Numbered from the stretch's first letter, positions 22 to 56,500 are shown. The stretch: 64,000 bases of DNA from an uncultured Candidatus Saccharibacteria bacterium (GCA_964546795.1 CAZJKG010000004.1:18994-82993); one strand, 5' to 3'. Notes: generated by a model not told the origin, from the letters alone. Translations and numbers: made by a program.

Positions 22-1476
22 TTATCTTGGTATATCTTTTATGTCCTTTTCTATCTCCTGTTCCGATTGGTCAAGCAACTTCTTGAATCGGGCGATAATC
101 TTCTCTTCCTCGCGAGTCAATTCGCGAGCTGATTTCACTCGTTCGAGTTTGAGTACCTCTTCCGTGATGGCATCTTTGAGATTATCGAATTTCTTATGAA
201 TGTGCGTTTCAGTAATGCTGAGTTGATGATTGAGGCGGCGGCGATACGCAGAAAAATGAACGTGGATATACCATGCCGCGAACAGTAGCGTACCGAGTAT
301 CGCAAGCACGATGAATATGAGTGAAATGTAGTTGACGGTTAACCATCCGAACGCAAAGAAATCAAATGGCTCTGGCTGCGCGGTTCCCTCGGTAATGAAG
401 AATCTTCCATTTGCAAGCGAGAAGTTCCCCGCCTTGTCATACGCTCGCACCAGGAGCATATGCGCTCCCGGATCTGCAGATATGGCATACGGCTTACTCC
501 CCTCATCGGCGGTGACTGTGAATTCTTTTCCATCGACTGCAACCTGATAATGGTCAATGCCGGAAAGTTCATCGGTCGCCGCAAAGAGCGCAGAGATCGA
601 ATTCCCGGATGGTGTCGTTGTCCCTTGCGGGAACAGTACCGTAAACGGAAGAGGTGATGCGGTATCAATTTGTATCCTATAGGTACTTATAGGACCCCAT
701 CCGCTTGGATCTCTTTCTTGTACATGGAAGTACCAGATACCGCCATCAAGCTGTAACTCTTTGTGTGATATTGGATCGCTATAGAGAACACTGGGTTTTC
801 CTTCCTCATTTTTATCGTATCCGAGACGTACAGAGGTAACACCTTGTGCATTGGTCCAATCAAACACCGCGTGAGCGAGTTTATACCATTGTGTTTCATT
901 TGGGTGCGTCGACGAAGTGATATGAGCGAGAAGTCCGACACCCGACACTGGAGAAGAAACACTTGGAGGAGGTGGTTCGGACTGCGGCTGGGAAGCGCTA
1001 ATATTTATCGTGGATGATTGGGTCCCCGTTAAAATATTCGTGCCATTGCCATCATTTGCGAGCACTTCGGATGATGAAGAAAATGTAACTGCCGCAGTAC
1101 CCTCTTTCTTCGCACGAAATTGAATTAAAAGAACTTGTCTGCGGCTGCCGATATATCCCGGATTCGGCACAACGCCGCTAAAGGAAATAGTCCCGTCATT
1201 ATTTGAGTAGGTAGGGTCTTGTACCCACAATGATAAAACGGAATTCGTTTTTGATATCGAAACTACTTGCAGGAGGTCTTCCGAGAAAGATAGCGTTCCA
1301 GAAATGGCGTTCATTGCCTGGTCGGCGCTCGTCACCACCACGGTTTCCGTGACGATTGCACCGATACCAATGCTAGTATTTAAGGGCGTTAGCCCAAGTG
1401 TCGCCGCTAGTGCCGAAGTAGGCAGCAAGAAAAACACTATCAGGGCAAGCAGATATGCTCGAAGGTACAATGTCAT
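22..1476 (-). CDS. Cohesin-like domain protein with N-terminal signal peptide, C-terminal transmembrane anchor and cytoplasmic coiled-coil tail
   Basis: Signal peptide MTLYLRAYLLALIVFFLLPTSALA. Beta-rich domain with cohesin-like pattern (ISFSGVVPNPGYIG...LLIQFRAKKEGTAAVTF...NDGNGTNIL). Paralog of the next ORF. C-terminal TM helix (ISLIFIVLAILGTLLFAAWYI) followed by a Lys/Glu-rich coiled coil. Confidence 0.5.
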   Translation of the reverse strand: MTLYLRAYLLALIVFFLLPTSALAATLGLTPLNTSIGIGAIVTETVVVTSADQAMNAISGTLSFSEDLLQVVSISKTNSVLSLWVQDPTYSNNDGTISFSGVVPNPGYIGSRRQVLLIQFRAKKEGTAAVTFSSSSEVLANDGNGTNILTGTQSSTINISASQPQSEPPPPSVSSPVSGVGLLAHITSSTHPNETQWYKLAHAVFDWTNAQGVTSVRLGYDKNEEGKPSVLYSDPISHKELQLDGGIWYFHVQERDPSGWGPISTYRIQIDTASPLPFTVLFPQGTTTPSGNSISALFAATDELSGIDHYQVAVDGKEFTVTADEGSKPYAISADPGAHMLLVRAYDKAGNFSLANGRFFITEGTAQPEPFDFFAFGWLTVNYISLIFIVLAILGTLLFAAWYIHVHFSAYRRRLNHQLSITETHIHKKFDNLKDAITEEVLKLERVKSARELTREEEKIIARFKKLLDQSEQEIEKDIKDIPR

Positions 1477-1482
1477 ACATTC

Positions 1483-2358
1483 TTATCGCCTTCCCCACCA
1501 TCTCCTCCAGAGGAAAACGAGTAACATAAGTATAACTAGAAACGCAAACATTTCATATGCGGTGAGGAGGCGCTGAGGTGGAAAAACACTAAGTCGTTCG
1601 TTACCGGCCCGGTCAACCGCCTTGATGTATATCGTGCTCGTGAGCCGCTGATCGATGATCTTATAAGGGCTTATGTCTTCTTTCCATGAAGGTGGAAAAA
1701 GCCAAAATAGGAACGATGGCAAACGGCTCTCAGTAACGGTATAGCGGTCAATTCCTGAGCCCTTATCAACCGCCGAAAAGGCGAGATAGGACCGACCGTT
1801 AAACAATTGAGGATCGCTTCCTTTGTATACAGTGAAGGGTTCTGGTGGAATCTGATCAGTTGGTTCCGTATATCCTCCAAACGGTTTTGGTTCAATGGAA
1901 AGAGTGAGTGATTTTGTTGTTGTCGGTTCATTTCCTCCTAAGCCGTCATTACGTAGCACTTCGATATCCTTGAGGGAGACCGTGGCTGTACCCGCGGCTT
2001 TCACTCGAAACAGAACTGAAAACAAAGTGCCGTCACTACCGGAAAATCCTCCGGGAGTAATTCCTGCAAATATGATCGGCATATCCGCATGAATCACAGG
2101 GCGAGTGATCCACATATTTATGAGCGAATTGCCATCGCTTATGGTAATCGGTTCCAGTGCGGCTTCGGAATAAAACAGTGTTCCGGAAAAAGCGTTGGCA
2201 GGAACGGTACTCGTAAGAAGAACGTCCACTCGCACCGTATCGCCAGCACCGATATCAGCGGGTTGCGCTTGAAGTGACATACTTGCCGCGGACGCCACCA
2301 TCGGTGACAGTAACGAAAGCAGAACAATGCAGATAGAAATTTGTTTGTGTACAGTCAT
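1483..2358 (-). CDS. Cohesin-like domain protein, membrane anchored (paralog of 22..1476)
   Basis: Start placed at internal Met (MTVHKQISICIVLL, signal peptide); this leaves a 4-nt gap to the upstream gene. Alignable to ORF 22..1476 (TLFYSEAALEPITI / TLSFSEDLLQVVSI; LFRVKAAGTATVSL...NDGLGGNEP). C-terminal TM helix FAFLVILMLLVFLW. Confidence 0.5.
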   Translation of the reverse strand: MTVHKQISICIVLLSLLSPMVASAASMSLQAQPADIGAGDTVRVDVLLTSTVPANAFSGTLFYSEAALEPITISDGNSLINMWITRPVIHADMPIIFAGITPGGFSGSDGTLFSVLFRVKAAGTATVSLKDIEVLRNDGLGGNEPTTTKSLTLSIEPKPFGGYTEPTDQIPPEPFTVYKGSDPQLFNGRSYLAFSAVDKGSGIDRYTVTESRLPSFLFWLFPPSWKEDISPYKIIDQRLTSTIYIKAVDRAGNERLSVFPPQRLLTAYEMFAFLVILMLLVFLWRRWWGRR

Positions 2359-2362
2359 GATG

Positions 2363-3688
2363 TTAGCCCGTCCAACGAGCGGCAAGGATGGAGAAGTCGG
2401 TGAGGTTAACTTTACCGTCGTTATTGAGGTCCGCTTTCGTTCCATTACCAGAAAGTGTTCGTTTATACCAATAGGCCACTATGGAGAAATCAACAAGGTT
2501 GACGCGCGTGTCAGTATTAATATCGCCAATGCTAGTTTTTTTAACCAGTTCCGCTAAGACATTTTTTGTTCCCACTTTGAAATTCACTGCGGGACTGAGT
2601 CCACTTACAAGCTGATTTCCTATAAGTGCTTTTGATTGGGCACTGTGCGAACCATATTCAAGCACCGAACTGTCAAAGTTATACAGATAGACACCGATCT
2701 TATCAGAAATCGTTTTCCCAAAGTATGTTTGGTCCGAATTGACAGAAATGACAATATCGCTTTGCGGGGCCGATTGTCCGAAAAGTGTGATGATATCGCC
2801 TCGATTTACTTCACTCTTGTTCGCCGCAATGGTTGGTGCAATGAAAATACCCGTCACATTCGTTGTAACGCCAGCGGTTAAACTTACGGGAAAAGAGAGG
2901 AGTGCTGAGCGATTGCCGTTATTGTCTTCACTGTACACCGAAAAAATAAAATTTCCCGCGCTGAGATTCGCTACGTTTATCTGAAACGTAGCATCTGGCC
3001 CTGCGATTGATGTGGCTACAACTTGCGCATCCTTGAGAATCGTAACTGTTCTGCTCGGGTATGCTCTGCCGCTAAAGTTTGCGCCGGTGTTTGAGACAGG
3101 AATTATTGCACCGCCTCCTCCTCCGCCACCGCCACCGCCACCTCCTCCGCCACCGCCACTATCAGAAGCTGCGGGGGTTCCCGACGTCTGTGTTGATGTT
3201 GCAATTCTGTTACCAAACGCATCTTTAGGGTTAACGACAAAATAATACGTTGTGCCATTCGTGAGCCCTGTCCTCGTTGAGGAAGTCACATTTCCTAGCG
3301 AAGAATACGTGTAAGGACCGCCAGAGGTTGTGGACTGTCCGACGTCATATCCCGAGACCGTCCAACCTATAAATCCTTCCGAGGCCGTCCAGGTGAGTGC
3401 CACTTGAGCATCGCCGGCCGTCGCGCCAACGGCCGGCGTTGATACGAAAGGATACGCGATAAAACCAGGATTGATACTGAAGGAGGTTGCACTGCTCGTA
3501 CTGTGGGCAAATTCGGAAATACTGCTGAAGAGCGTGAAGCTACTTGAAGTCGCGTATCCGCCTGGATTCATGACCGGGCTAAGCACTTGATAAGTGGTGG
3601 AAGTAAGATCTTCCGCATGAGCGATATCGAATCCGATACTCACGAAGAGCAAGAGAAATGTTCCCCATCGAAAGATTCTTTTACACAT
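2363..3688 (-). CDS. Secreted fibronectin type III / poly-Gly linker / type-I dockerin domain protein
   Basis: Signal peptide. FN3-like segment (ALTWTASEG...GTTYYFVV). 16 consecutive Gly codons. C-terminal tandem Ca-binding dockerin repeats GDINTDTRVNLVDFSIVAYWY and ADLNNDGKVNLTDFSILAARW. Confidence 0.6.
   Translation of the reverse strand: MCKRIFRWGTFLLLFVSIGFDIAHAEDLTSTTYQVLSPVMNPGGYATSSSFTLFSSISEFAHSTSSATSFSINPGFIAYPFVSTPAVGATAGDAQVALTWTASEGFIGWTVSGYDVGQSTTSGGPYTYSSLGNVTSSTRTGLTNGTTYYFVVNPKDAFGNRIATSTQTSGTPAASDSGGGGGGGGGGGGGGGGAIIPVSNTGANFSGRAYPSRTVTILKDAQVVATSIAGPDATFQINVANLSAGNFIFSVYSEDNNGNRSALLSFPVSLTAGVTTNVTGIFIAPTIAANKSEVNRGDIITLFGQSAPQSDIVISVNSDQTYFGKTISDKIGVYLYNFDSSVLEYGSHSAQSKALIGNQLVSGLSPAVNFKVGTKNVLAELVKKTSIGDINTDTRVNLVDFSIVAYWYKRTLSGNGTKADLNNDGKVNLTDFSILAARWTG
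3110..3157 (-). repeat. (GGN)16 simple-sequence tract encoding a poly-glycine linker
   Basis: Plus strand reads ccgcctcctcctccgccaccgccaccgccacctcctccgccaccgcc. Codon phase checked against the ORF end at 2363. Confidence 0.9.
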
Positions 3689-3724
3689 GGAGCAAGCACT
3701 ACATATCGTAGCACGCTACTTCTG

Positions 3725-3809
3725 CGGAGGCGGAGAGATTCGAACTCTCGGAGGGTTGCCCCTCACATGCTTTCCAAGCATGCGCACTAGACCGCTATGC
3801 GACGCCTCC
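3725..3809 (-). tRNA. tRNA-Ser (GGA), class II with long variable arm
   Basis: Hand-folded: acceptor GGAGGCG/CGCCUCC; 3-bp D stem; anticodon stem CAUGC/GCAUG; loop UUGGAAA; variable arm GAGGG-GCAA-CCCUC; T arm GAGAG-UUCGAAU-CUCUC. Confidence 0.8.
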
Positions 3810-3811
3810 TT

Positions 3812-4054
3812 TTATAAACCAAACTCACGTTTGATTTCCTCTCTTTTATACCCTTTTTTGTACTCTCGCTCAAGACGCACAGATTCCATTTCAGATTCAG
3901 TCTCAATAGTTTTCAATAACATAAATGGTGTACGGGATTTTGTGGCAGGCACGGCACCACGATTATGCTCCGCCAAACGTCTTTTGATATCATTGGTCCG
4001 CCCAATATAAAAATGGTTGTCCTTCAAACTCTTCAAGATGTAAACAAAGTACAT
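3812..4054 (-). CDS. GIY-YIG nuclease family protein (small, UPF0213/YhbQ-like)
   Basis: MYFVYILKS...YIGRTNDIKRRLAEHN matches the GIY-YIG core (YIG..RR..EH). One of three paralogs in the window sharing the MYFVYI N-terminus. Confidence 0.8.
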   Translation of the reverse strand: MYFVYILKSLKDNHFYIGRTNDIKRRLAEHNRGAVPATKSRTPFMLLKTIETESEMESVRLEREYKKGYKREEIKREFGL

Positions 4055-4080
4055 ATAAGTTCAAGGTAGTGTACTAGACC

Positions 4081-4116
4081 CCTGCCTGCCGGCAGGCAGG
4101 ACTATGCGACGCCTCC
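4081..4116. repeat. 20-bp perfect palindrome plus 15-bp direct repeat of the tRNA-Ser 5' end
   Basis: 4081-4100 is the palindrome cctgcctgccggcaggcagg. 4102-4116 ctatgcgacgcctcc is identical to 3795-3809 (tRNA-Ser positions 1-15). Together they bracket the GIY-YIG gene. Confidence 0.85.
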
Positions 4117-4243
4117 GTACCCCAAAGGGCCCCGTTAGGGTGTTTCTGTTATAACAGACAAACTTCTTATTTTCCAAGCAAGGCCTTTATTCTTTCTTGA
4201 ATCGGAGGCCGCGCCTACATTCGCGGACTCACTCGGCGCGGCA

Positions 4244-5149
4244 CTAGATGCTTTTGTTTGATCCAAGCAAAGCTTGGATCCTACTTGGAATCGTCGGGTG
4301 TGTGGAGAACATCCCTTCAATCCAACCGCCGATGCTGCTCGATTTTTTCCCAAAAGGATCGCCAATGAAGAGGTGCGCTGTTGCTGTATTGGCACTCTTC
4401 ATTGGCGAAGCATAATTCCCGATTTTTCCGAGCGCGGATGCAAGACCTTCGGGATAGCGAGTAAGCAGAGCGCCTGAAGCATCCGCAAGATATTCACGGC
4501 GGCGCGAGACGGCAAGCTGAATAAGTTTCGCGGCCACAGGCGCGAGCACGATGCCGACGACGGCGAGGACCATTATGAGCGCGTTTCCGTTCTTAGTATC
4601 GCTTCGACCTCCACTATGGAGCGAGATTCGTAAAAAAATATCAGCAACGATAGCAACAAATCCGGCAAGCACTACCGCGATCGTCATGAGAAGCATATCG
4701 CGGTTCTTGATATGCGAAAGTTCATGACCGATGACGCCTTCAAGCTCCGGCCGCGACATCATAGAGAGGAGACCGGTCGTCGCACAGACGACCGCATGTT
4801 GTTCGTCGCGGCCAGTCGCGAATGCGTTCGGCGCCGGATCATCTATCACATAGAGCTTCGGCGTAGGGAGTCCTGCCGTAATCGCGAGGTTCTCCGTAAC
4901 GGTGTAGAAGTCAAAGAATTCTTCTCGGGTCGCCTTTCGTGCATGATTCAAAGAAAGAACGAGTGTGTCCGATGCCCAATACGCATAGAAATTCGTCGCC
5001 ACCGCGATAACGACCGCGATATAGAGAATGGAAGAATCGTTGTAATACCACGAGATCGCATAACCAACAGCGATGACAACTATCAAGAACCCTAGAACGA
5101 GTGCCCAGGTTCGGCGAATATTAGACGTGCGCTGTTCATACAGATTCAT
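4244..5149 (-). CDS. htpX: Zinc metalloprotease HtpX (M48 family)
   Basis: HELSHIKNRD HEXXH motif; N-terminal TM helices; length and architecture typical of HtpX. Confidence 0.9.
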   Translation of the reverse strand: MNLYEQRTSNIRRTWALVLGFLIVVIAVGYAISWYYNDSSILYIAVVIAVATNFYAYWASDTLVLSLNHARKATREEFFDFYTVTENLAITAGLPTPKLYVIDDPAPNAFATGRDEQHAVVCATTGLLSMMSRPELEGVIGHELSHIKNRDMLLMTIAVVLAGFVAIVADIFLRISLHSGGRSDTKNGNALIMVLAVVGIVLAPVAAKLIQLAVSRRREYLADASGALLTRYPEGLASALGKIGNYASPMKSANTATAHLFIGDPFGKKSSSIGGWIEGMFSTHPTIPSRIQALLGSNKSI

Positions 5150-10167: not shown

Positions 10168-10241
10168 CCGCCCCTAGCTCAGCTGGTTAGAGCATCGAGC
10201 TTATACCTCGAGGGTCCTTGGTTCGAGTCCAAGGGGGCGGA
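10168..10241 (+). tRNA. tRNA-Ile (UAU)
   Basis: Acceptor CCGCCCC/GGGGCGG; U8A9; D arm GCUC-AGCUGGUUA-GAGC; anticodon stem UCGAG/CUCGA; loop CUUAUAC; T arm CUUGG-UUCGAGU-CCAAG; discriminator A. Confidence 0.8.
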
Positions 10242-10250
10242 CAAAACAAG

Positions 10251-12780: not shown

Positions 12781-13202
12781 GGGGGTGACCGGCTTTGACG
12801 GTCTGTACCTTGAAAGACGTGCGACGCAGTGCACTCCCGTCATCACTTAAAAACGCGGGAAAACAAACTTGCCAAGAACACTCTTGCAAGCGCAATGAAG
12901 TCGCCTTACTTCGGTAAGGTTGGCGACATCGCGTTCGCCTACGCGACGGCTCGCGGCTAACGCCCGACGCCCTCGCCCAGCGCGACGTTCATCCTCTCGA
13001 GTTCCCGCAGTCGGAGGCATGGGCGGAATTATCTGCGTGATCGTCCCTCGCGTTCCCACGCGTTGGGATTAAATAAGGGATCGAGCAGGAATGGTTTCGT
13101 CTGCGTTCCTCGCATCCTGTTTTAGACACTAACGCTGACTATGCGTCGTAGAAGCGCTTTCATAGACGGATTCGGACCGGAGTTCAACTCTCCGCACCTC
13201 CA
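12781..13202 (+). ncRNA. ssrA: tmRNA (ssrA)
   Basis: 5' end GGGGGUGACCGGCUUUGACGG resembles E. coli GGGGCUGAUUCUGGAUUCGACGGG. 3' end UUCGGACCGGAGUUCAACUCUCCGCACCUCCAC resembles UUCGGACGCGGGUUCAACUCCCGCCAGCUCCACCA. Acceptor GGGGGUG/CACCUCC has G3:U70. Lies immediately downstream of smpB. Confidence 0.8.
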
Positions 13203-13282
13203 CAAAATAACGAGTCCTTCCGAGGACGACTATATTTTGTGAGAATCCCGAGCGTACTCGCGAGGGGCTCCACAACAAACAT

Positions 13283-44516: not shown

Positions 44517-47500
44517 TTAATGGGAGATTTCTCTGAACTTCGGAGGCCCCGACAATACCTTCACCGTGAGCGGTACGTCAACCGATCTCGTGATGCCTGC
44601 CGCAAGGCCGGTGACGCGCACGACGTATGTTGTAGCGGGGTCAAGCGTTGCGCCTGCGGCAAAGTGTAGCACGGGGACGGTGCCGACTGCGTATTCTTCG
44701 GGAGAGAAGGAGTCCTTCTCGAGGGTGACAGTGACTCCCTCGACCGCGGGGACGAGCTCGGTAGAAAGAACAATCGTCGTGGCGAAGCCGCCTTGCGCGA
44801 TTCCCCATACACGCACGTCCTTCGGCACCACGGACGTCGTACCGCCGGAACGAGAGACCTCAAAGAGTCCTTCGGAGCGTAGGAGGTAATTCGATTCTAT
44901 GACCGATACGGTAACTGCGTCATCCACTGTGCCGGTTTGATTTGAACAGGTCAACGTATACGTGGCCGTTTCCTGCAGATTCGAAATCGTCTCGGTGAAG
45001 GTGCCGTTGGCGGTCTTTGCGCCAGACCAGCTGCCGGAGGCGAGACAGCTGTCTGCATTTTCAGAAGTCCAGGTTAGGATTATTGATTCTCCTTGGTTTA
45101 TTGTCGTTTGATTGGCAGAGAGAGTTACTGTCGGGAGTACGGATGGCGGAGGAATAATGGATTCGCATGAAGTATTATCGGCGCTTTGTATGAATCCTGG
45201 GTTGCAAGTCCACCCTAGATAATATGTAGTGTCATTGCATGAGCCCGCAGGAGATGAGGAACAGAATTGCTGTCCCACAAAAGAGGAGTTTGCGGGCTTC
45301 ATCGTGACCGCTCCAGATGGTTTGACAATATTGCACAGATTGAAACATTGGTCTGTCACGGTCACTATAGGTGCCGTACTGGGGATATTAGGAATATCTT
45401 GAATAAAGGAATAAGGAGGCGCATACTGAAGTGAAGATGGCTCAGTAGTATCTACTATTGGTGCCGGACCAAGATAATCAAGTTGCTGATCTCCAGAAAC
45501 ATAACCAATGAAAGCCGCCGCTACAGTACCAGTTACATAACCAGGGAGAGCTAACCCGACAAGGCTAGCACCGCGCTGGAGATTGAGTGAGATGGTCGTC
45601 TGGTCCACTACAGAGTTTATTGCGAGACCGGTAGCTTCAGCACCAAATCTTATAGCTTTATTATGATCGGATTCGAGACAACCACAGAAAAAATTAGTAA
45701 CAGATTTTAACTTAACAATTGTTGATGAAAAGAGTCCTAATTCACTTCGTTCAATCCCCTGGGGCGGATTCCATATTGTGCTTGAATGGAAAGCCACTGC
45801 GCCAACAAAATTTCGATCTATAGCTTGAATTTGCGCATCAATGACACCAAGATCATGTGATAATTGACCAATTCTTGCTTGCAAAAATTCCGGAAAATTA
45901 GGGTCATTAGGGCCCATGACGTCCACGATTTTCTCAAGAACCATGTTAAAATTAAAAGCAGTAAGTGCCTTATCTGCTTCTAGCATAAACCTCCTTATTG
46001 CTAATTGCGCAATATTTAGAGATGTTCTGTCTTCAATTTTGACGCTGTCGACAAGCATCGGGAAGTTTGCTTGTGTTCGATCGGAAAGTTCACGAGCGGC
46101 TTCCGCAGTTAGAGGAGGAAGCTGTTCTGAAAGAACATCTAGTTTTTCTAGTGATGGTGCACTTTCCACGGCATTTATCTCCGAGACCCTGACTTCCAGT
46201 TCGTGAGGCACCTCTTGCGTAGGCGCTAGGCCAAGTTCAGATTTTAATGAAATATTTTGTCTCTCTTCCATCATTTCAGGGGTCACAAGACCTCTTTCCA
46301 AAAGCCAATTGAATTCCAAATCAACTAACTCGTTAGCTGCTACATTACGAGCTACTTTCAAATCTTCTAAGTTTTGTTTTCTTGTGTCCGAAATAGGTAT
46401 ATTGAAGGCCTTCCTGATAGCTGTGCCTGCTTCCGTGTCAGTAATTCGTTGATCGAGGTCCTGAACAAGTGATTTCTTTCCAACTATTTCTAGTGAGAAT
46501 AATTGTTCTGTCGCCTTATCAAACTCTATTGCTCTCAGTTCCGCTTGTTCGGATTTTAATGCGCCAACCCGATCAGAAACATTTATCCTCTCATCATCTG
46601 TAAGCAAGTTATATTTACGACCATATTGTCGGCCCATTGCATTTAATTCATTTCCTATTTCAATCAATCTCGGACCTTCAAGCCCATTCTCCTTAAGCCA
46701 GATGCCCTTCAAAGAATTTGACTCTTTATACAGATTACTCAGATTCTCTTGGACTTCATCAAGTCGTATTTCTAGGTTGATACTAAATTCTCCGCTCCTT
46801 ATCGAATTTATATCCGTTGGGAGTAATGCTGCAGCCAAGGCCTCATTTGCAGCAATCTCCCCGTCTACCTTTAGAATACTTGAGGGGACGCTGTAACGAA
46901 CATTTTGAGAATTGGCATCTGCAAATGCTATCGTTATTAATTCTGCTGCATGAGCATTATTCTCAGTAATTGCAGTTACGTTTTCCACCACAGTATCAGT
47001 TTTTGCACTGTTAAAGCGCAAAGATGTTGCTTGAGGTAGTTCGGCTTTCAAATCCGCAAGTAATAATCCTACGTTTGGATCATAGGGGATTATATGCACA
47101 TCATCAAGAACCGCAAAGTTTTTCCCTTGTGCGTCTTCAACAGAAATCAAGGGTAATAAGCGTGTTACCCCATCCTTACCGGTTTCACCACTGAATTCTG
47201 GAAATAGTATTCGGAAAATCTGACTCTCTGGATTTAATGTCAATCCACCGCCGCAATCTTGAGATACAGCATTAAGGCCTTCGCCAAGCGAGAAACTCCT
47301 TCCTGGTGTTTGTGCAGGCGACAAATCAGATACATCATTAAGAGCCACTCCTCGCGGAACGATTGAACAGAACGTATTTTGCGCTGGAAGTTTATTAACG
47401 GCGACACGGGATATAGTATTTCCCTTTGCAAAAGAAGAGATGGGCGAGAAGAGATTTTCACCTTGTTTCAAAATATCATTTAGTGCAAAGTGTGAGAACG

Positions 47501-50500
47501 AAGTATCTTCCTTTTTCGCAAGACGTATGGCGTCCCAATTTTCAAAGCCAATGCCAGTGGTTCCATTGATATCGGCCGAGAACGCAAAGCGTTCTTTATC
47601 TTCGGAAATGGCTTTCAAGAGAAGTTGGTCGCTGACATCCTTTACTTTAGGATCAATGAGACGAATTCTGTCACCATCGGGATTTTGCGTGCGCGTGATA
47701 AAACCGACATCCACGTGAGTATTCCCTTTTATCCCTCCGTAATCTTTCTCGCCAATGAGTCCGACTTGGGTTAATGCGAAATCAAGCGCGTCTTGGAGCG
47801 GCATCCCAATCGCGGCGTAGAACTTGCTTAACACATTCATAAGGACGCTCGCTTCCACAAACGCAAGGTCTTCGGAGTCCCCAATAATAGGAGATGCTAT
47901 TGTGCCATCGGGATTGACCTGAAGTGTATCGCGTACACTTTTCCACGTATCACTTGTATCATTTTGATCATACACAAAAGAGGGATAAAGCGCGTCATGC
48001 ACCAATTCCGCCATATCGTTCGCGGACTTACTTGCCAAATGGGACTGAGTTAGGAGTATATTACTGCCAAGCTTATCAACTGGCTCAATGAAAGGTTCGA
48101 GATAGGTATTCAAGGTCGAGAGTTTCTTTAGGTAATCAATGTTGAAATCAGGGACGCCATACGTCTGTTGCAATCCGGCAAGCGTAAAGTGCGGGGTCGC
48201 CCAGAATACAAATCCTTCAGGATCGGCAGATGGAGGAAATATAGCGTTAATGGAAGGAGGAATCGAGAAACGTTGAGTTCCTGTTGGTGTGGCGAAGCTC
48301 TGAACCAAGAAATAGGCCCCGAAAATGCCATTGGTGCCGGTTGCGTATGTCCCAAGTGTTACCGGAGAGACCGTATCGGTAGAATCCGTTATTTGTCCTG
48401 CAGTTGCGCCAAGTCCTTTCATAAGTCCGAGGGGCTCAATGAAATACAGCTTGCCGAAAGTATCTTTAAATCCTACGGACGCGTGTCCGGTGCCTGCCCT
48501 ATCGACAATCGGTCCGGCTTTATTGACAAATGCCGACATCGTTCCTACGCGATTTGCGGCATCAGTATTCCCTACGCGCAGGAACAGATTTCGGATCAAA
48601 GCATAAACGAGAATGGCGGAATCATCGCAGTCGCCACCCTTGCGCGCAAGGGTCTGGAACGGCAGCTGGACATTGTCGTAGCGCGCATCAAAACTCGGCG
48701 TATCAAAGAGATAGGTAATTAAATTCAAACTATAGAAATATTTATAGAATTCTTTGATAAGCGCAATCTCGCTTTTCGCCTTTAAATCAACTCCTTTGGC
48801 TGTCATATCTTTCTCAAATTGATCAAGGAGCAAAGCGATTGACGGATCGGTATACGAATTCACTTCATCAAGGGAGAAGAAACCACCTCTTCCGTTATTT
48901 ATCGTCGAGTTGTAGTGGTAGGTCTTGCTGCTATTCGCATCGATAAAAAGACCAGGGCCTTCAAAGGTGGAATCCCATATGTCATGGCGTCGTTCAAACG
49001 CAAGCATGTCATCGTAGCTTGTCGCTCGAAGCATTCGATTGACGCTTGCTACATCCGTCATGTCAATAAATGCCGAGTGCAGGGAACCCATACGCACTGC
49101 GCCGGGCATGATATAAAATCCCTTGAAGTATCCTGTCTGATCCTGACCGGTCCATGCCATCGCCGTCGTCTCAAGATCAAGGTCCGATGTCCATGATTTG
49201 GCCGCCCCCCACGCTCTATATTCAATCGCGTAGATCGCCTGCACCATGCGGCGCGTTGCGTCAAGCCATGCGGTCTGACGCTGAGGGTCCTTAGCGGAGT
49301 CCGTACCGATTGTCTCAAGCCGATTTTTGTAGGATTGCAAAAGATTCTTGGTTACCTGATACAGCGCTTCTTGTTCAGACATACTTACCGGGATGCCGAG
49401 GGATTCAAGGATTTTGATTCCCATATCGCGCTCCACGAATGGGTTCTGGTAGGTGAATTCTTCGGCGGTGTCGGATTGGCCGGGCAGTATTCCCTTCAGT
49501 TTATACCGCACGGTGCGCTTCAGTACTGATTCCTGATTGAAAATCCTGTACGTGGAGACCGTATAGGTTGACGCATCATCGCTGTAGGTATAGCGGTATT
49601 CGGTCCACGGTTTCCCTTCTCCGTCAAAATACCGGATAGTACTTGCCCGCGCCCCGTCAAATACCACTTCCGAAACCAATTCTTCCGCAGGACTGTACCC
49701 CTTGTATGACAACACGGTGAATGCCGCCGTATCGGCGTATTCGTAGACACCTCTACTGAGGAGCGAGCCGTCTGTTTGGTATTTGTCGATTTCGGCGGTT
49801 TTCAGATACCCACTTGGGTGATACGTGTAGCGGGTCTTTGACGTAACGTCGCCTGCGGCACTGTAGAGAAGACGTTCCGCGCCGGAACGCAGCCGCGTGG
49901 GCGTGTAGAAGAACGTATTTTGCGAGCGGAGCTGCGGCGTGTCCCCCGCATAGAGGGGCACCGTGTGGTACACCAATTCATTGTCTTCCAGAGAATACGT
50001 CCGTACGGCCCCCTGGCGGTTCCGCAGAGAAAGACCGACGGTCTCGGAATCATACGTGCCGTTCACGTAATCAATGAGTGTCTTCTCCGACAGTTGTCCG
50101 TTCGTAATTTTTGTCTTGCTGCTTGAAAGGAGCGTGCTGGGGCTCTGCGTTTCGGAGATAATAGTGTTTTCACCGGTCGCTTTGCCGTTTGCATCATAGG
50201 CGGTCTCGGTAAATGAATACTTCGGCTCGGGCGTTTGCGTGTAGGTGCGGACCGACGCGAGCGTACCATCCGCGCCATAGGAATACAGGTGCTTCTCGTA
50301 GCGATTCGCATCGTAATACAGCAAGTCGTCAGAGAGTTGGCCGTCGGGACGATACGTGTAGTTCTTGGACCATTCGTATGCGTTCGTCTGCACATTGAAG
50401 ACGTGGGAATACTGGAGTTTTCCCTGTTCGTCGTAGCGATTATAGCGTTCGCGATCGCCGCGGCGCATGATTTCTTTCCGTATCGTGCCGCTGGGGTAGT

Positions 50501-53500
50501 ACAGCCGGATGTCTTTTTTGGTGACGCCGTCGAGGCCGTAATTAAATTCTTTTTCGGGGCTTCCCTGCTCGCCATAGAACACCTCGCCGGTCTTCGTTGT
50601 GCCGTCCGGAGCGAATATGGTCGTAGAGAGGAGAGAGGAGGTTGAGATATTGTTGCTAGCGTAGGTATTGATAAACGCGACGGTGCCGTCCAGACGGATG
50701 AATGTCTTGGATGCGGGCGCGGCTGATATGGCCGGTTCAGTCGGAGCCGTCAGCGCCGGAGTCGGCAGAAGTTCTATCGATGGGACAAGTTCTCTGAGCG
50801 GCGTCGTTATATCAATGACTGGCGCATCGGCTGGCACATCCGCAAATGCGGCGGTGACGGAGGGGATGCGATTGCGAGTAACTTTTACCGTGCATGATCC
50901 GACTCCCCTACAATCCCCGGTCCATCCGATGAAACGCCCTCTGTTGTTTGCGTAGGAAGCAAGGGTTACTAACTGGTCGTCCGCAAAAAGGCCTTTGCAT
51001 GTTCCCGAGGAACAGGTGATTCCCGAAGGATTTGAGATAACGCTCCCCGAGCCGCGAACCGATACCCGCAATTCAGACACGCCGGACGCAAAGAGAGGTC
51101 TAAAGAGATATGATCTATCCATCTTGAGAGTGCAGAGATCGGTGCTTGGATAACATTCCGATCCGTTCCATCCGATAAACGAGTTTCCTTTTTCAGCGAC
51201 CGGAGTCAGGGTAACGAGCGACCCCACAGGGAATACTGCAGAACACGTCCCCGGACAATCAATGCCGGAAGGAGATGACTTCACGCGCCCTTGTTCTGTA
51301 GTAAGACCTTCTATTGAAATTGAGGGGCGCAGTGTGAAATTGAAAACTGGTCGATTTCCACTAAGGGAACCACATCTATTACCATAACAGTAGTACTCTC
51401 CATTATTAGGGCCATTAAATGCTCCGCCGGCATCAGGATATACCATAACAATCGAAGGTTTACTAAAGCTCGGCGTCGAGCAGACAGGCGGGCAATTAAT
51501 TCCTTTCCCCGTAACATGGCCGCTTCCATTCACCACGACGGAAAAGTCAGACGGTTGTGATCCAGCCCCTCCAATATCAAAAGCGAGCTGCAGATTTTTT
51601 GAGACCTTCACGGTGCATTTCTTGTGCGCCGTTTTCTGTTCCGCGTCTTCCGCACATGGAGAAGGCGTGCTGTACCTATAATTCGAATTGTCCTGTATGT
51701 CCGCCCATGACCATATGACAGTATCGCTGTAGCCGGACCCGGGAAGCATTATAAGCGTTACGTCATTATCCGTTGTAAATGTGGTGCTGCACACTGGGGC
51801 GTCCGATCTAATACCTCCTACTCCTCCAACACCTCCAACACTTCCAACACCTCCTCCCTGCCAACTGCAATTCATTCCCAGCGGATCAGAAATAATGCGC
51901 CCGCTGCTGCCTAGATAAACAACAGATCCGGCGTCCAAACTAAGGGTGCTTACCGTATCACCCCATGCTTCAAGCTCGTCAAGCGCAAAAACAATTGAGC
52001 TATTAAATTCGTCTTTGGCGTCGGGGAAACGCTCCGTCGTTAAACTCCCCGAACCCGTCGCGCGGACGCGCATCTGCGTCACCCCCTCCCACGAACCGAC
52101 CGCTTCAAGCTGTTTTTTTGTATCGGTTGCCTGGCGGGCTATGGGGTTGTTTCTCATCGGACTCTCGTAGGTCGCGACGTCTTTCCAGGCGCCGGACTGG
52201 AACACGGAGAGCGTTATGGTGAAATTCGCGTTGGCGATATAGTTCGGACTTGAGAGGAAGAACATTCCTTCCGTCGGAGCAATGGCTTTAATGCTCTTGA
52301 GCGAAACAGATTTATTGAAATTCACCGTCGCTTCATACGTGAATGAACACGGACTCGATGGAAGCAGGAGACAGAGTCCGTAGTTGCCGACCTGATTGCC
52401 CTGAATGCCGTCTTTGACTCTTGAGAAATTCCTGTAGCGCTCGGAGAATACGGGGTCTGTAGGCATTGACCACGCCGGGCCCGTGAATTGCTGACTGCCG
52501 GTTATCGTTGAGGCGGGATCAAGCACTCGGTTTGGAGCCGACGCTTGATATGTTTTGTCGCTAAAAGATGCAAGGACTTTGAATTCCGAACCTGCCGAAG
52601 GAAACTTGCAGGGACCAAGAGCGGAAAGACATGGTTGCGACCAACCGAGGAATGCTCCTTTTGTCTCAACGGCATCCAAACTCACGGCACCGATATTTCC
52701 GAATTCGGCGGTGCAGCTCACGTTCGGGCAGTCAATGCCCGCCGGAGTGGATACGACGCGGCCGACTCCGTCAAGCGTTACCGAGAGTTTTGTTTTCCCG
52801 AATTTCGCTTTCACGAAACGGTCTTTTGAAAAACTAAAGACGCAGGAAAAATTCGGATATTGCCAGAGTCCGGGTTTATTTTGTGCCGCGTTCCATCCGG
52901 TGCGATAACAGGCATAATCCGATGCTTCCCAGCCCAAAAATACAGAGTCATTCAGTGGGGTCTCGGTAAGATACTGACTCGTAAAGCTGCCGTATTGAGA
53001 ATAAGGAAATAGTGCTCTACAGGTCGGCGGACAGCTAATGCCCGCGGGAACCGATGTTACTTTCCCGTCCCCAACCACCAAGACAGAGATGGAGATCGGT
53101 TCCCCTATTTGGATCGGTTTTGAATATATGTCCAATGTCTTATCCCCGTCCATGGTAATGGTACAGGAGGGGAACGTCGTACCGCTGCATGTTCCGCCCC
53201 ACCCGAGAAATCTTCCTTGAGTACTGACTCCGTCCTGACTGTTATAGCCAAGATTGTATGTAGCGGTTGTAACAGTGCCGGGCGGAAAACGTACTGAGCA
53301 AGTTGATGTCGCTTCAACGCCAGAACCATTATTGAAAGAGCAGCCGTCTAAGGTTCCTGGTTGGAACAGGATGCCGCCAGAAATTGATTCGCCGGGCTTC
53401 AACTTCATGGACAGCGTCAACGTTTTCCCGCTGCCAAAAACGGCTTTCGCTGTTTTATCGCCATCAAGGGTAATGACACACCTACTGAACCAACTCTCAT

Positions 53501-56500
53501 CACCTACACAATCGCCTCCCCAATTGTAAAATGTATCAGATCTGTTATAGGCCCGAAGATCAACGTCGGTTCCCACATTGAATGTGGCACTACAGGTCGG
53601 CGGACAGTCAATACCGCGCGGACCCGAAACATGACCATCTCCTTGAACTTCAATGTTCAACGTCTTGGTTAAGGTTAAATCAAAGTTTGCCGTGACAGAA
53701 GAATCTTGGTTTATCAAAGATATACAGTCAGCGCTATACCCGGTGCAGAATCCGGACCAAGAAGAGAATGATCTTCCGAGAATTGTCAGTGCTTCCGCGT
53801 GTGAACCTCCTTTCGCTGGTGCCTCAAGCATGATTCTTTGATTTTGGGCATATCTTTGCACACAGGTCGTAACTAACGGTTTCTCGGGCGAAGGACAATT
53901 TGTAAGACTTACCTTACCATCTGAATATGCGATTCTCCCGCCTCCAGTGACGTTGATAGTAAGCTTGGGTCCTTGTCCGAATATCACGCTAAAAGATTTA
54001 TTATCATCAACTTTAACGAGACATGCTTGACCCGGTGGAGGAGCAACAAAACACGGCCCTTGTATGGAATTAGAGGATTCTCCCGGATCCGGATATGGTA
54101 CAAGATATAACTGTTCTCCAGGATTGTATTGTGCACTGCAGGTCGGCGGACAATTGATTTCGCTGCCGTGGTAAACACCATTGGACGAAACCTTACCGGG
54201 ACCAGTTACACTGACGGAGATTGTCTTTGTAGGAACCGCCGCAATATTTGCCGTGACGGTTTTGTCCGCATCCATGATGACGAGGCAGGCACTACTGTAT
54301 GGATTACTCTGTGTGCATACGCTTGAAAAGCTCTCTAATTTAAGCCCCGGTTGGGTGAAAGTCGTATAAAGAATGACTTTGGCACCGGGAACAAACTTGT
54401 CTTCGCATTTGTGAGGACACTGTATACTCCCACCTCTACCGTCTGAATATACACGGAATTCTGGGCTATCGGCTCCCGTACCTGTAAGCGACACCTTCAG
54501 TGTCTTTCTCATATCCAGGAAGTTCGCTTCAACCGACTTGCTTGCCTCCATGCTCACCGTGCAGGTGGTCGCGGTGCCAGTGCAGGCGCCGGACCATTCT
54601 TGGAATTGGAACCCCGGAGTCAGACGTACAGTGAGCGTGACGCTGTCGGTTTTGGCAAACCCGAAATGACAATATTTATTATTGTAACGAGTAAGATCGC
54701 AACCATTGCCGTTGGAAAGACCAATATATCCTCCATCCGGGATATTTTGAGAAATTGTCAGTACGGAAAGGTTCGTAAAGGTTGGTTGCAGGCCGATGTC
54801 GTAGAGAGGTGAGGTCGTGACCGTACAAGTTGACAGGGAAGCGTCCGGGCATCCATCAAAGCTGAGTAGAGATATTCCCGGTTTCGGCGTCGCAGTGAGG
54901 TTCACGGATGTGCCGGGGGGAAAATCAAACTCACATGCGGGTGGACAACTGATGCCTTGAGGTGATGAGGTGACACTTCCGGGCGCATTGTCGCCGAGAT
55001 TTCCCACACGGATCTTCCCGACATTCTCAACAAACCAAGGTGTGACGGTAAAGTCGGAGAGGGTTGGCTTGAGCGTACAAGGGTTCAGGTGCCCGACACA
55101 TCCAGGATCGGGACCCCTCCAATCGCGAAACACTTTACCATCGTCTGGAAGCGCGGCGAGGGTGAGCGTCTCGCCGGCGGGCACGCGCACCCTGCATACA
55201 GCGGGCGCGCGGCACTCCTCGGAGGAATCGGCGAGAGTAATGCTACCAAAATTGGTCGGCGTTATGGTGACGAGGCGGTTCGCGGCATTGAATACATTGA
55301 GGTCATAGATATCGGAAAAGATGTCTATGCCTCCTGAAGCGGAACCGGCAGAAACGTTCGCTTGGCCATCGACATGGATCTTCACTCCGCTCACATCCTC
55401 CCACGAGCCGATGATCTCAGGAACCCATCCGCCCATAGTGTCGTCACTCGATGACCGTTCAATGGTACGCACTTCCCTCCACACTCCCCCGATCTTGAGG
55501 GAGGTGGTGATAGTCACCGCTCCTGTGGCTTTGAATCCTCCAGAACCGTTATATCCGTAGTGGATATACTGTCCGCTGTATGTTGACCCTATTTGGCCCA
55601 CCGGAACCGATTGATGGAAATCAAGTTCGGCATCATAGGTGAAGCGGCATGATGTCGGAGTCACGCCCCCGATGGAACAACCTACTCGGTGGCGTGTTTC
55701 ATTCTTGTCATCTGTTATGTCAGCAAAGGTGCCTTCGGTTGATTTGCTGACGGTGATAGTGCCGCTGACGGTGGTTTTCGGGTCGACACTGTAGTTGAGG
55801 ACTGGTGTTGCAAAGGGCGATTTAAATGTCTCTCTTGCGTCCACGAAATTCGCCGTAACCGACTTGCTCGACTCCATGCTGACCGTGCAGGTGGTCGCGG
55901 TGCCGGTGCAGGCGCCGGTCCATTCTTTGAATTTGAAGAACTGGTTCGTATGGGGAAGTGCGGTAATCGTAACGGTAGCGGTCTTGACAAAATCGAAATT
56001 GCAATTTTTATTATTATAACGAGTAAGATCGCAAAAATGGCCGCTGGGAAGACGAACGTATCCTCCATTCGGAATATTTTGAGAAATTGTCAGCACGGAA
56101 AGATTCGTAAATATGGGCTGCATAGAGATGTCGTAGAGAGGTGAGGCCGTGACCGTACAGATTGACAGGGAATAGTCCGGGCATCCATAAAAGGTGAGAA
56201 GAGATGAGCCGGATTTTGGTGTTGCCGTCATGTTCACCGACGTACCGGAAGGGAAATTGAAGGTGCAGGTCGGAGGACACTCAATGCCCGAGGGGGATGA
56301 GGTAGTGATGCCAAGTTCACTACTATAGACCGAGATGCGTCCGACATTGTCGACAAACCATGGATTGACTGTGAGGTCGTAGAGGGTGGGTTTGAGCGTG
56401 CAGGGCTTTGCCGCTCCGACACATCCAGGGTCGGGCCCTCGCCAATCGCGAAGGGTCTTGCCATCGTCCGGAATCGCCGTGAAGGTGATCGTCTCTCCGA

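Follow-up and report, generated by a model that had tools for sequence, protein, structure and literature searches.

Cohesins are nine-stranded beta-sandwiches of the jelly-roll type that contact dockerins through their 8-3-6-5 sheet. Both non-cellulosomal cohesins and cohesins anchored by a transmembrane helix are already known. The anchoring scaffoldins of the OlpA, OlpC and SdbA type in Clostridium thermocellum carry one cohesin per protein, are bound to the cell and capture secreted proteins that end in a dockerin. Non-cellulosomal cohesin and dockerin modules of archaea and bacteria were reportedly surveyed by Peer et al. in 2009. In the non-cellulosomal cases, to our knowledge, the partners are mostly unassigned and do not share a conserved operon with membrane anchors. 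The Archaeoglobus fulgidus cohesin (PDB 2xdh), for example, belongs to an organism that makes no cellulosome. Transmembrane-anchored single-cohesin proteins were described in Firmicutes (H. luporum, C. cibarium and Lachnoclostridium sp. MSJ-17) as non-S-layer homology (non-SLH) anchoring scaffoldins (PMC11557425). In bacteria of the Candidate Phyla Radiation (CPR), expression of cohesin and dockerin genes was interpreted as cellulosome formation, for instance in Shapirobacterales (PMC9123182), and SEML1_0315 of the saccharibacterium Southlakia epibionticum is a dockerin-containing envelope protein that is essential in transposon sequencing and was proposed to act in host interaction (PMC10633639). 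Here, we analyzed a trio of genes, named G1, G2 and G3, located at positions 22 to 3688 of a 64,000-nucleotide stretch of DNA (the window) from an uncultured Candidatus Saccharibacteria bacterium (GCA_964546795.1 CAZJKG010000004.1:18994-82993). G1 codes for a secreted protein with a dockerin, and G2 and G3 for two membrane-anchored proteins with cohesin or cohesin-like domains. The trio probably serves as a display module, based on membrane-anchored cohesins and a dockerin and unrelated to a cellulosome, that is conserved among Parcubacteria, ultra-small CPR bacteria of the class Paceibacteria type. The literature on cohesins and dockerins in Parcubacteria, Paceibacteria, CPR and Patescibacteria, within an incomplete coverage, yielded no description of this operon.

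The trio shares with the C. thermocellum anchoring scaffoldins the presence of a single cohesin in each cell-bound protein and a design that would permit the capture of a secreted protein with a dockerin tail, and the structural model of G3 superimposes on the solved OlpC cohesin-dockerin complex 4dh2 (TMt 0.71-0.73). Unlike those scaffoldins, G2 and G3 use a C-terminal transmembrane helix instead of SLH repeats or a sortase. Besides, their presumed cargo is not an enzyme, they belong to a CPR bacterium that is not cellulolytic and G3 includes a cytoplasmic coiled coil. The Firmicutes non-SLH scaffoldins are closer in that they combine a single cohesin with a C-terminal transmembrane helix and their partners are unclear or non-cellulolytic; however, they are scattered genes found in a survey of cellulosomes, whereas the genes described here form a fixed operon shared by 509 or more species of another phylum. 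SEML1_0315 is, like G1, a secreted multi-Ig/FN3 CPR protein that carries a dockerin. It differs from G1 in that it is 927 amino acids long, it is monocistronic and the gene table lists no adjacent cohesin genes. On the basis of this comparison of architecture and context, SEML1_0315 was set aside as a direct counterpart of G1 and is considered only an analogy.

The three genes are co-directional and lie on the minus strand, as do all the features of the trio described below. G1 (2363..3688), recognized as an open reading frame (ORF) and by Pfam, family matches and a structural model, specifies a secreted, dockerin-tailed stalk protein of 441 amino acids. G2 (1483..2358), identified by paralogy to G3, hydrophobicity and a cohesin hidden Markov model (HMM) of the G3 family, specifies a short membrane-anchored cohesin protein of 291 amino acids. 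G3 (22..1476), identified as an ORF and by Pfam Cohesin and an AlphaFold model, specifies a long membrane-anchored cohesin protein of 484 amino acids. Only 4 nucleotides separate the G1 stop from the G2 start and 6 nucleotides the G2 stop from the G3 start, in agreement with an earlier interpretation made without database searches (the sequence-only reading), which had described three tightly packed genes. The most likely G2 start is the ATG at 2358, which gives the 291-amino-acid protein; a start at 2445 (a 320-amino-acid ORF present in a mechanical listing) is less plausible, as it would overlap G1. In this genome, the gene cluster is bounded on its upstream side by a tRNA-Ser(GGA) gene (3724..3809, minus strand) that lies 36 nucleotides from G1, and the window ends 21 nucleotides past the end of G3. 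Scans of the region for promoters and terminators gave no signal over background. Homologs at E below 1e-60 number in the hundreds for every one of the three families, and therefore the trio is far beyond what chance could produce.

The G1 protein consists of a signal peptide, a head of about 60 amino acids, an FN3 domain, a run of 16 glycines, two Ig domains and a C-terminal dockerin. The dockerin (residues 386-441; 2366..2533) includes two Ca-loop repeats, DINTDTRVNLVDFS and DLNNDGKVNLTDFS, and was identified by Pfam, PDB matches and the columns of Ca ligands. It matched Dockerin_1 (PF00404) over residues 388-436 with 37.8 bits (cutoff, 22.9), as did 27 of 29 G1 relatives, and it also matched the solved dockerins 2y3n, 1daq and 2mte (E about 6e-5). 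Positions 1, 3, 5, 9 and 12 of the Ca loop are D or N in both repeats (D389-N391-D393-N397-D400 in the first and D420-N422-D424-N428-D431 in the second), which is the pattern expected of Ca-binding repeats by the sequence-only reading and agrees with the dockerin layout of two repeats of about 22 residues, in each of which a helix comes after an EF-hand-like Ca loop. That reading had also called the domain a type-I dockerin; the score supports the family assignment, but "type I" is the name of the Pfam model and does not designate a specificity class. The ligand positions of the first repeat are almost invariant, with D or N in at least 81 of 84 relatives. There is near symmetry between the two repeats, with DxNxDxxVNLxDFSI present twice, and this near-identity suggests a dual binding mode of the dockerin. 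About half of the G1 relatives have a Cys inside Ca loop 1 (DLNCDC/GRVNL), some with a further Cys a few residues upstream, a pattern that suggests a possible disulfide within the dockerin. The G1 protein of the window has Thr at the residues where these relatives have the loop-1 Cys (residues 392-394 in the alignment).

The remainder of G1 has the features of an exported stalk. The signal peptide (residues 1-25; 3614..3688) has a hydrophobic stretch at residues 5-23, a model helix at 2-19 and a predicted cleavage site AHA|ED. The N-terminal head (residues 26-85; 3434..3613) is conserved in the family alignment and was modelled by AlphaFold with low confidence; it contains three S-x-x-[FY]-x-[LV] motifs, and in isolation it had no credible match in Pfam. 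The FN3-like domain (residues 86-172; 3173..3433) was weak in Pfam (E 0.063), a database that detected fn3 in 4 of 29 relatives; it matched the PDB entry 3mpc, an "Fn3-like protein" (E 5e-5), and was modelled as a beta-sandwich. A direct count confirmed exactly 16 residues in the poly-Gly linker (residues 178-193; 3110..3157), and the alignment showed a poly-Gly run conserved at this position across the family. The two Ig-like stalk domains (residues 198-380; 2549..3097) were recognized by Big_6 (33 bits in G1 and present in all 29 relatives), by a predicted local distance difference test (pLDDT) of 85-95 and by matches to tandem FN3/Ig structures. The AlphaFold model of G1 shows three FN3/Ig beads for which Foldseek found generic FN3/Ig tandems only. 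The earlier description of a secreted protein with an FN3-like domain, a (Gly)16 linker and a tandem dockerin was thus borne out by Pfam, the PDB matches and the residue count.

The cohesin domain of G3 (residues 25-162; 991..1404) was detected by Pfam and Foldseek. The score against Pfam Cohesin (PF00963) was 26.4 bits with a cutoff of 24.1. The AlphaFold model had a pLDDT of 83.9 overall and about 90 over residues 25-160, and its best single-domain PDB matches were all cohesins (6kgf, 1g1k, 2vn6, 4dh2 and 2xdh), with TMt values of 0.70-0.78 and a root-mean-square deviation (rmsd) of 2.4-2.8 A. The closest values were those of 1g1k (TMt 0.78, rmsd 2.4 A). The matches include cohesins complexed with dockerins as well as the non-cellulosomal A. 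fulgidus cohesin (TMt 0.77). Neither a direct sequence search of G3 nor the family profiles of G2 and G3 matched any cohesin in the PDB; the cohesin similarity of G3 is visible only through Pfam and the fold. We would tentatively assign the conserved N56, W84, G107 and L139-G143 to strands of the putative 8-3-6-5 face.

The cohesin of G3 is followed by a disordered Pro/Ser linker, two more beta domains, a transmembrane helix and a long helix that extends to residue 481. The middle beta domain (residues 183-272; 661..930), defined by alignment, model and hhalign, contains the motif ITSSTHPxxxxWY and is absent from G2. The membrane-proximal Ig-like domain (residues 273-364; 385..660), common to both anchors, was recognized by an NCBIfam OmpL47-type model (E 1.2e-7, below its cutoff), by Big_13, which was found in 22 of 28 relatives, and by hhalign. 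The transmembrane helix (residues 375-402; 271..354) was identified by hydrophobicity and as a helix in the model. The last segment is a cytoplasmic, coiled-coil-like helical tail of about 80 amino acids (residues 403-484; 25..270). The isolated middle domain and tail had no credible match in Pfam. The model places helices at residues 373-448 and 455-481, and residues 403-481 are predicted to be a long helix, consistent with the cytoplasmic coiled-coil tail that had been anticipated on one of the anchors.

G2 has a simpler layout, with a signal peptide, a cohesin at residues 25-160, an Ig-like domain at 170-262, a transmembrane helix at 266-285 and an RRWWGRR tail. Its cohesin-like domain (1879..2286) was identified by comparison with that of G3. 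The N-terminal domains share 35% identity (E 8e-22; hhalign probability 100%), and a cohesin HMM built from the G3 family matched G2 at 1.4e-24. G2 is, as judged by these alignments, a G3 paralog that lacks the middle domain and the tail. Pfam Cohesin was matched by 13 of 28 G3 relatives and 7 of 29 G2 relatives. Both proteins start with a signal peptide that includes an AxA site and have one C-terminal hydrophobic helix followed by an Arg-rich sequence; Pfam SLH repeats and the LPXTG motif were not found in either of them. These features predict that G2 and G3 are type I membrane proteins in which the N-terminal cohesin is outermost and is followed by one or two beta-sandwich spacers and a single transmembrane helix. 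The proposal in the sequence-only reading of two paralogous, membrane-anchored cohesin-like proteins with C-terminal transmembrane helices therefore agrees with Pfam, the fold matches, hhalign and hydrophobicity. With respect to the HMM searches and the structure prediction that it had recommended, G1 and G3 scored above the Pfam cutoffs, G2 was reached through its homology to G3, and the cohesin fold was found in the one anchor modelled, G3. The observations that this reading had named as refuting it were looked for and did not turn up.

The genomic distribution of the trio was assessed next to its domain composition. In a scan that took a single genome for each species, at least 509 species encode a relative of G1. 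The G1 family had 1969 matches at E<=1e-3 among 8000 scored candidates, and a profile search of 1.84 billion cluster representatives identified 1727 clusters at E<=1e-30, some of them giant FN3-repeat proteins. The named sources of the trio families are CPR bacteria of the Parcubacteria type (Kaiser-, Niyogi-, Zambryski-, Taylor-, Nomura-, Vogel- and Magasanikbacteria, Paceibacterota and Minisyncoccia), where the proteins carry automatic NCBI names such as "cohesin domain-containing protein" and "dockerin type I repeat-containing protein". Linkage was counted in the best 80 species loci (L009-L088) among the genomes with G1 relatives. The order dockerin gene, G2-type gene and one or two G3-type genes, all on the same strand, was conserved in 78 of the 80, a result that answers the question of conservation in related genomes raised by the sequence-only reading. 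The two exceptions are contigs that end just past the dockerin gene. No further dockerin was found within 7 kb on either side in any locus, and the window contains exactly one dockerin and two cohesins. Genes of about 394 amino acids were observed in or near some clusters; the one in L007 (10240-11424) is a second G3-like gene and that in L005 (4626-5810), upstream of the dockerin gene, codes for a Bact_surface_Ig-like protein.

The arrangement is also modular. Variants of G1 of 350-680 amino acids keep the polyGly-Ig-Ig-dockerin portion and have unrelated N-terminal heads, and the genes with swapped heads still adjoin cohesin anchors (L089, L091). In L091, the pair of anchors is inverted so that it converges with the dockerin gene. 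Two independent assemblies have the short anchor joined to the long one in a single gene of 715 amino acids (L089, 7171-9318; L090, 7347-9494) with the order cohesin-Ig-transmembrane helix followed by a signal-like transmembrane segment, a cohesin, further sequence, a transmembrane helix and a coiled coil; this gene adjoins that of a dockerin protein with an unrelated head. That the linkage outlasts replaced heads, inversion and fusion is the best reason to think that the dockerin functions jointly with the cohesins and that the two anchors operate as a pair. The paralogous anchors probably pair, since in some lineages they are fused into one polypeptide. Domain identities, predicted topology, operon structure, conservation and modularity can be considered established. 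From them, we infer the physical contact, its stoichiometry (dual mode or bridging) and the role.

The mechanism that we propose is as follows. The three proteins have predicted Sec signal peptides, and G1 would be exported as a soluble secreted chain. Its dockerin would fold around two Ca2+ ions and plug into the distal cohesin of G2, G3 or both. Docking would hold G1 on the cell with its head facing away from the membrane, beyond the anchors, on a flexible stalk formed by the Gly16 hinge and three beta domains. The polyGly-Ig-Ig-dockerin portion may then be a generic "stalk plus plug" on which different heads are grafted. The sequence-only reading had suggested surface display or adhesion as a possible role, for example in the attachment of an episymbiont. 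The mean column identity of the G1 head across species was 46%, and this moderate conservation speaks for an architectural function or a ligand that is itself conserved, and not for a fast-evolving, host-specific adhesin. The trio likely serves to build the envelope or to attach the cell, frequently in association with a giant neighbour rich in Ser, Thr, Gly and Ala (S/T/G/A), and not to degrade polysaccharides. Inter-protein covariation (mutual information with average product correction, 79 related species) placed dockerin columns in eight of the top ten pairs, and their partners were G3 cohesin columns 56, 85, 107, 108 and 150 as well as the Ig domain of G2.

Several observations weigh against docking as just described. 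Position 1 of the second dockerin repeat is Asp in only 34 of 84 relatives and therefore a single Ca2+, or a different mode of binding, is conceivable in many members of the family. The AlphaFold monomer gave pLDDT values of 29-49 for dockerin residues 386-441 (and also below 50 for the head), so that the dockerin fold is deduced from its sequence. The Cohesin score of G3 passes the cutoff by just 2 bits, and G2 on its own has no Pfam match. Conservation per domain was 0.65 for the dockerin, 0.60 for FN3, about 0.55 for the Ig domains, 0.46 for the head and 0.32-0.43 for the cohesins; a dockerin so much more conserved than the cohesins is not what one would first expect if the two co-evolved. 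The covariation, obtained from 79 related sequences, is inseparable from phylogeny and in part points to the Ig domain of G2 and not to its cohesin.

The poorly modelled dockerin, the second Ca site that is degenerate in most relatives and the lower conservation of the cohesins would also be understandable if the trio belonged to one surface structure, such as the S-layer or fibre anchorage of a giant protein, with no canonical cohesin-dockerin contact. The cohesins would then bind the giant, peptidoglycan or each other, and the EF-hand pair would be a Ca-stabilised C-terminal module. Giant S/T/G/A-rich ORFs (at least 700 amino acids) are indeed frequent at these loci. In 39 of the 80 loci, such an ORF is the immediate upstream neighbour on the same strand, and in 48 one is found either upstream or downstream; in L003, the giant ORF overlaps the start of the dockerin gene by 4 nucleotides. 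In a second assembly of the genome studied here (L001, 11660-13864), the next gene after G3 on the same strand specifies a secreted S/T/G/A-rich protein of more than 735 amino acids that runs off the end of the contig. Its homologs hold the same position in the close relatives L025, L026 and L046, and it is related only to those. However, the giant gene is missing from about 40% of the loci and falls into different families in different clades, whereas the linkage between dockerin and cohesins is near universal. Furthermore, cohesin and dockerin are the only pair of domains that is always together, even after head replacement and inversion. On balance, a structure that dispenses with the contact seems unlikely, and we favor the display module.

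The cytoplasmic tail of G3 allows for another interpretation, in which a ligand or force acting on the head is transmitted through the G3 transmembrane helix to the coiled coil, which would recruit or position a partner in a signalling or localisation process. The tail is a long helix with invariant F430, E456 and E457 residues and the motif LTxEEE+LIxRLKKLL, and it is kept in the fused anchor of L089. In contrast, it matches no known signalling domain, the A1-type genes are shorter in other lineages (about 386 amino acids in L003) and no gene for a cytoplasmic partner is conserved in the neighbourhood. Such outside-in coupling is improbable. A minimal cellulosome-like complex for polysaccharide degradation, the weakest of the alternatives, has in its favor the Pfam matches and the published reading of CPR cohesin and dockerin expression (PMC9123182), but it is effectively refuted for this locus because G1 has a head, FN3, Ig, Ig and dockerin with no catalytic or carbohydrate-binding module (CBM), each anchor has a single cohesin and there is no multi-cohesin scaffoldin, the 64 kb hold just one dockerin, the variant heads examined have no carbohydrate-active enzyme (CAZyme) domain, and neither the neighbours nor the larger window ORFs yielded any glycoside hydrolase, polysaccharide lyase, carbohydrate esterase or CBM. 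The sequence-only reading, which had noted that no glycoside hydrolase is nearby and had placed the trio outside any cellulosome context, is supported for the domains, the architecture and the non-cellulosomal setting.

Other features of the window were recorded. Its larger ORFs are of the housekeeping type and include FtsH, RecG, malic enzyme, HtpX, BipA, CTP synthase, FtsX and a release factor, among others. Upstream of G1 (3724-5149, minus strand) are the tRNA-Ser, a small GIY-YIG protein and an M48 (HtpX-type) protease. SEML1_0315 is likewise located between a tRNA gene and an M48 protease that is two genes away, which may be a coincidence. A 4691-amino-acid secreted giant ORF with divergent InlB B-repeat (Flg_new_2) domains (178 bits) occupies 44517-58592 (minus strand); no relatedness to the giants associated with the cluster was found, and it was rejected as their kin. 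A single-transmembrane protein of about 136 amino acids is found between the upstream giant and the dockerin gene in 44 of the 80 loci (for example, L011, 6125-6532) and has no counterpart in this window. In most bacteria, AUA is read by a lysidine-modified CAU tRNA; ARAGORN identified a tRNA-Ile with anticodon UAU (tat) at 10168-10242 (plus strand). A full-length tmRNA of about 425 nucleotides (Rfam RF00023, 91.7 bits) is located at 12781-13205 (plus strand).

CPR/Patescibacteria represent a large share of bacterial diversity, and the way they build their surface and attach to hosts is almost wholly obscure. The locus described here is a defined, conserved three-gene module with a predicted Ca-dependent interaction that is testable with small recombinant domains and needs no culturing. 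It also serves as a caution that cohesin and dockerin matches in CPR metagenome-assembled genomes are not proof of cellulose degradation (cf. PMC9123182). Apparently, the "plug and socket" of the cellulosome type has been put to a new use here, that of keeping a protein attached to the surface of the cell. If the two domains bind, the pair would be naturally minimal, membrane-anchored and orthogonal, and it may help in surface-display engineering. A more far-reaching and rather doubtful possibility is that the trio forms the centre of an envelope machine present throughout the Parcubacteria lineage and perhaps indispensable to it, in which a heterodimeric transmembrane cohesin receptor would hold dockerin stalks with exchangeable heads and tie them, perhaps along with the giant fibre proteins, to a cytoplasmic coiled coil, and which would be the principal means by which the organism arranges its surface or keeps hold of a host cell. 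Were this the case, it would be the first function assigned to CPR cohesin-dockerin pairs, and "plug and socket" would stand as a general connector of the envelope.

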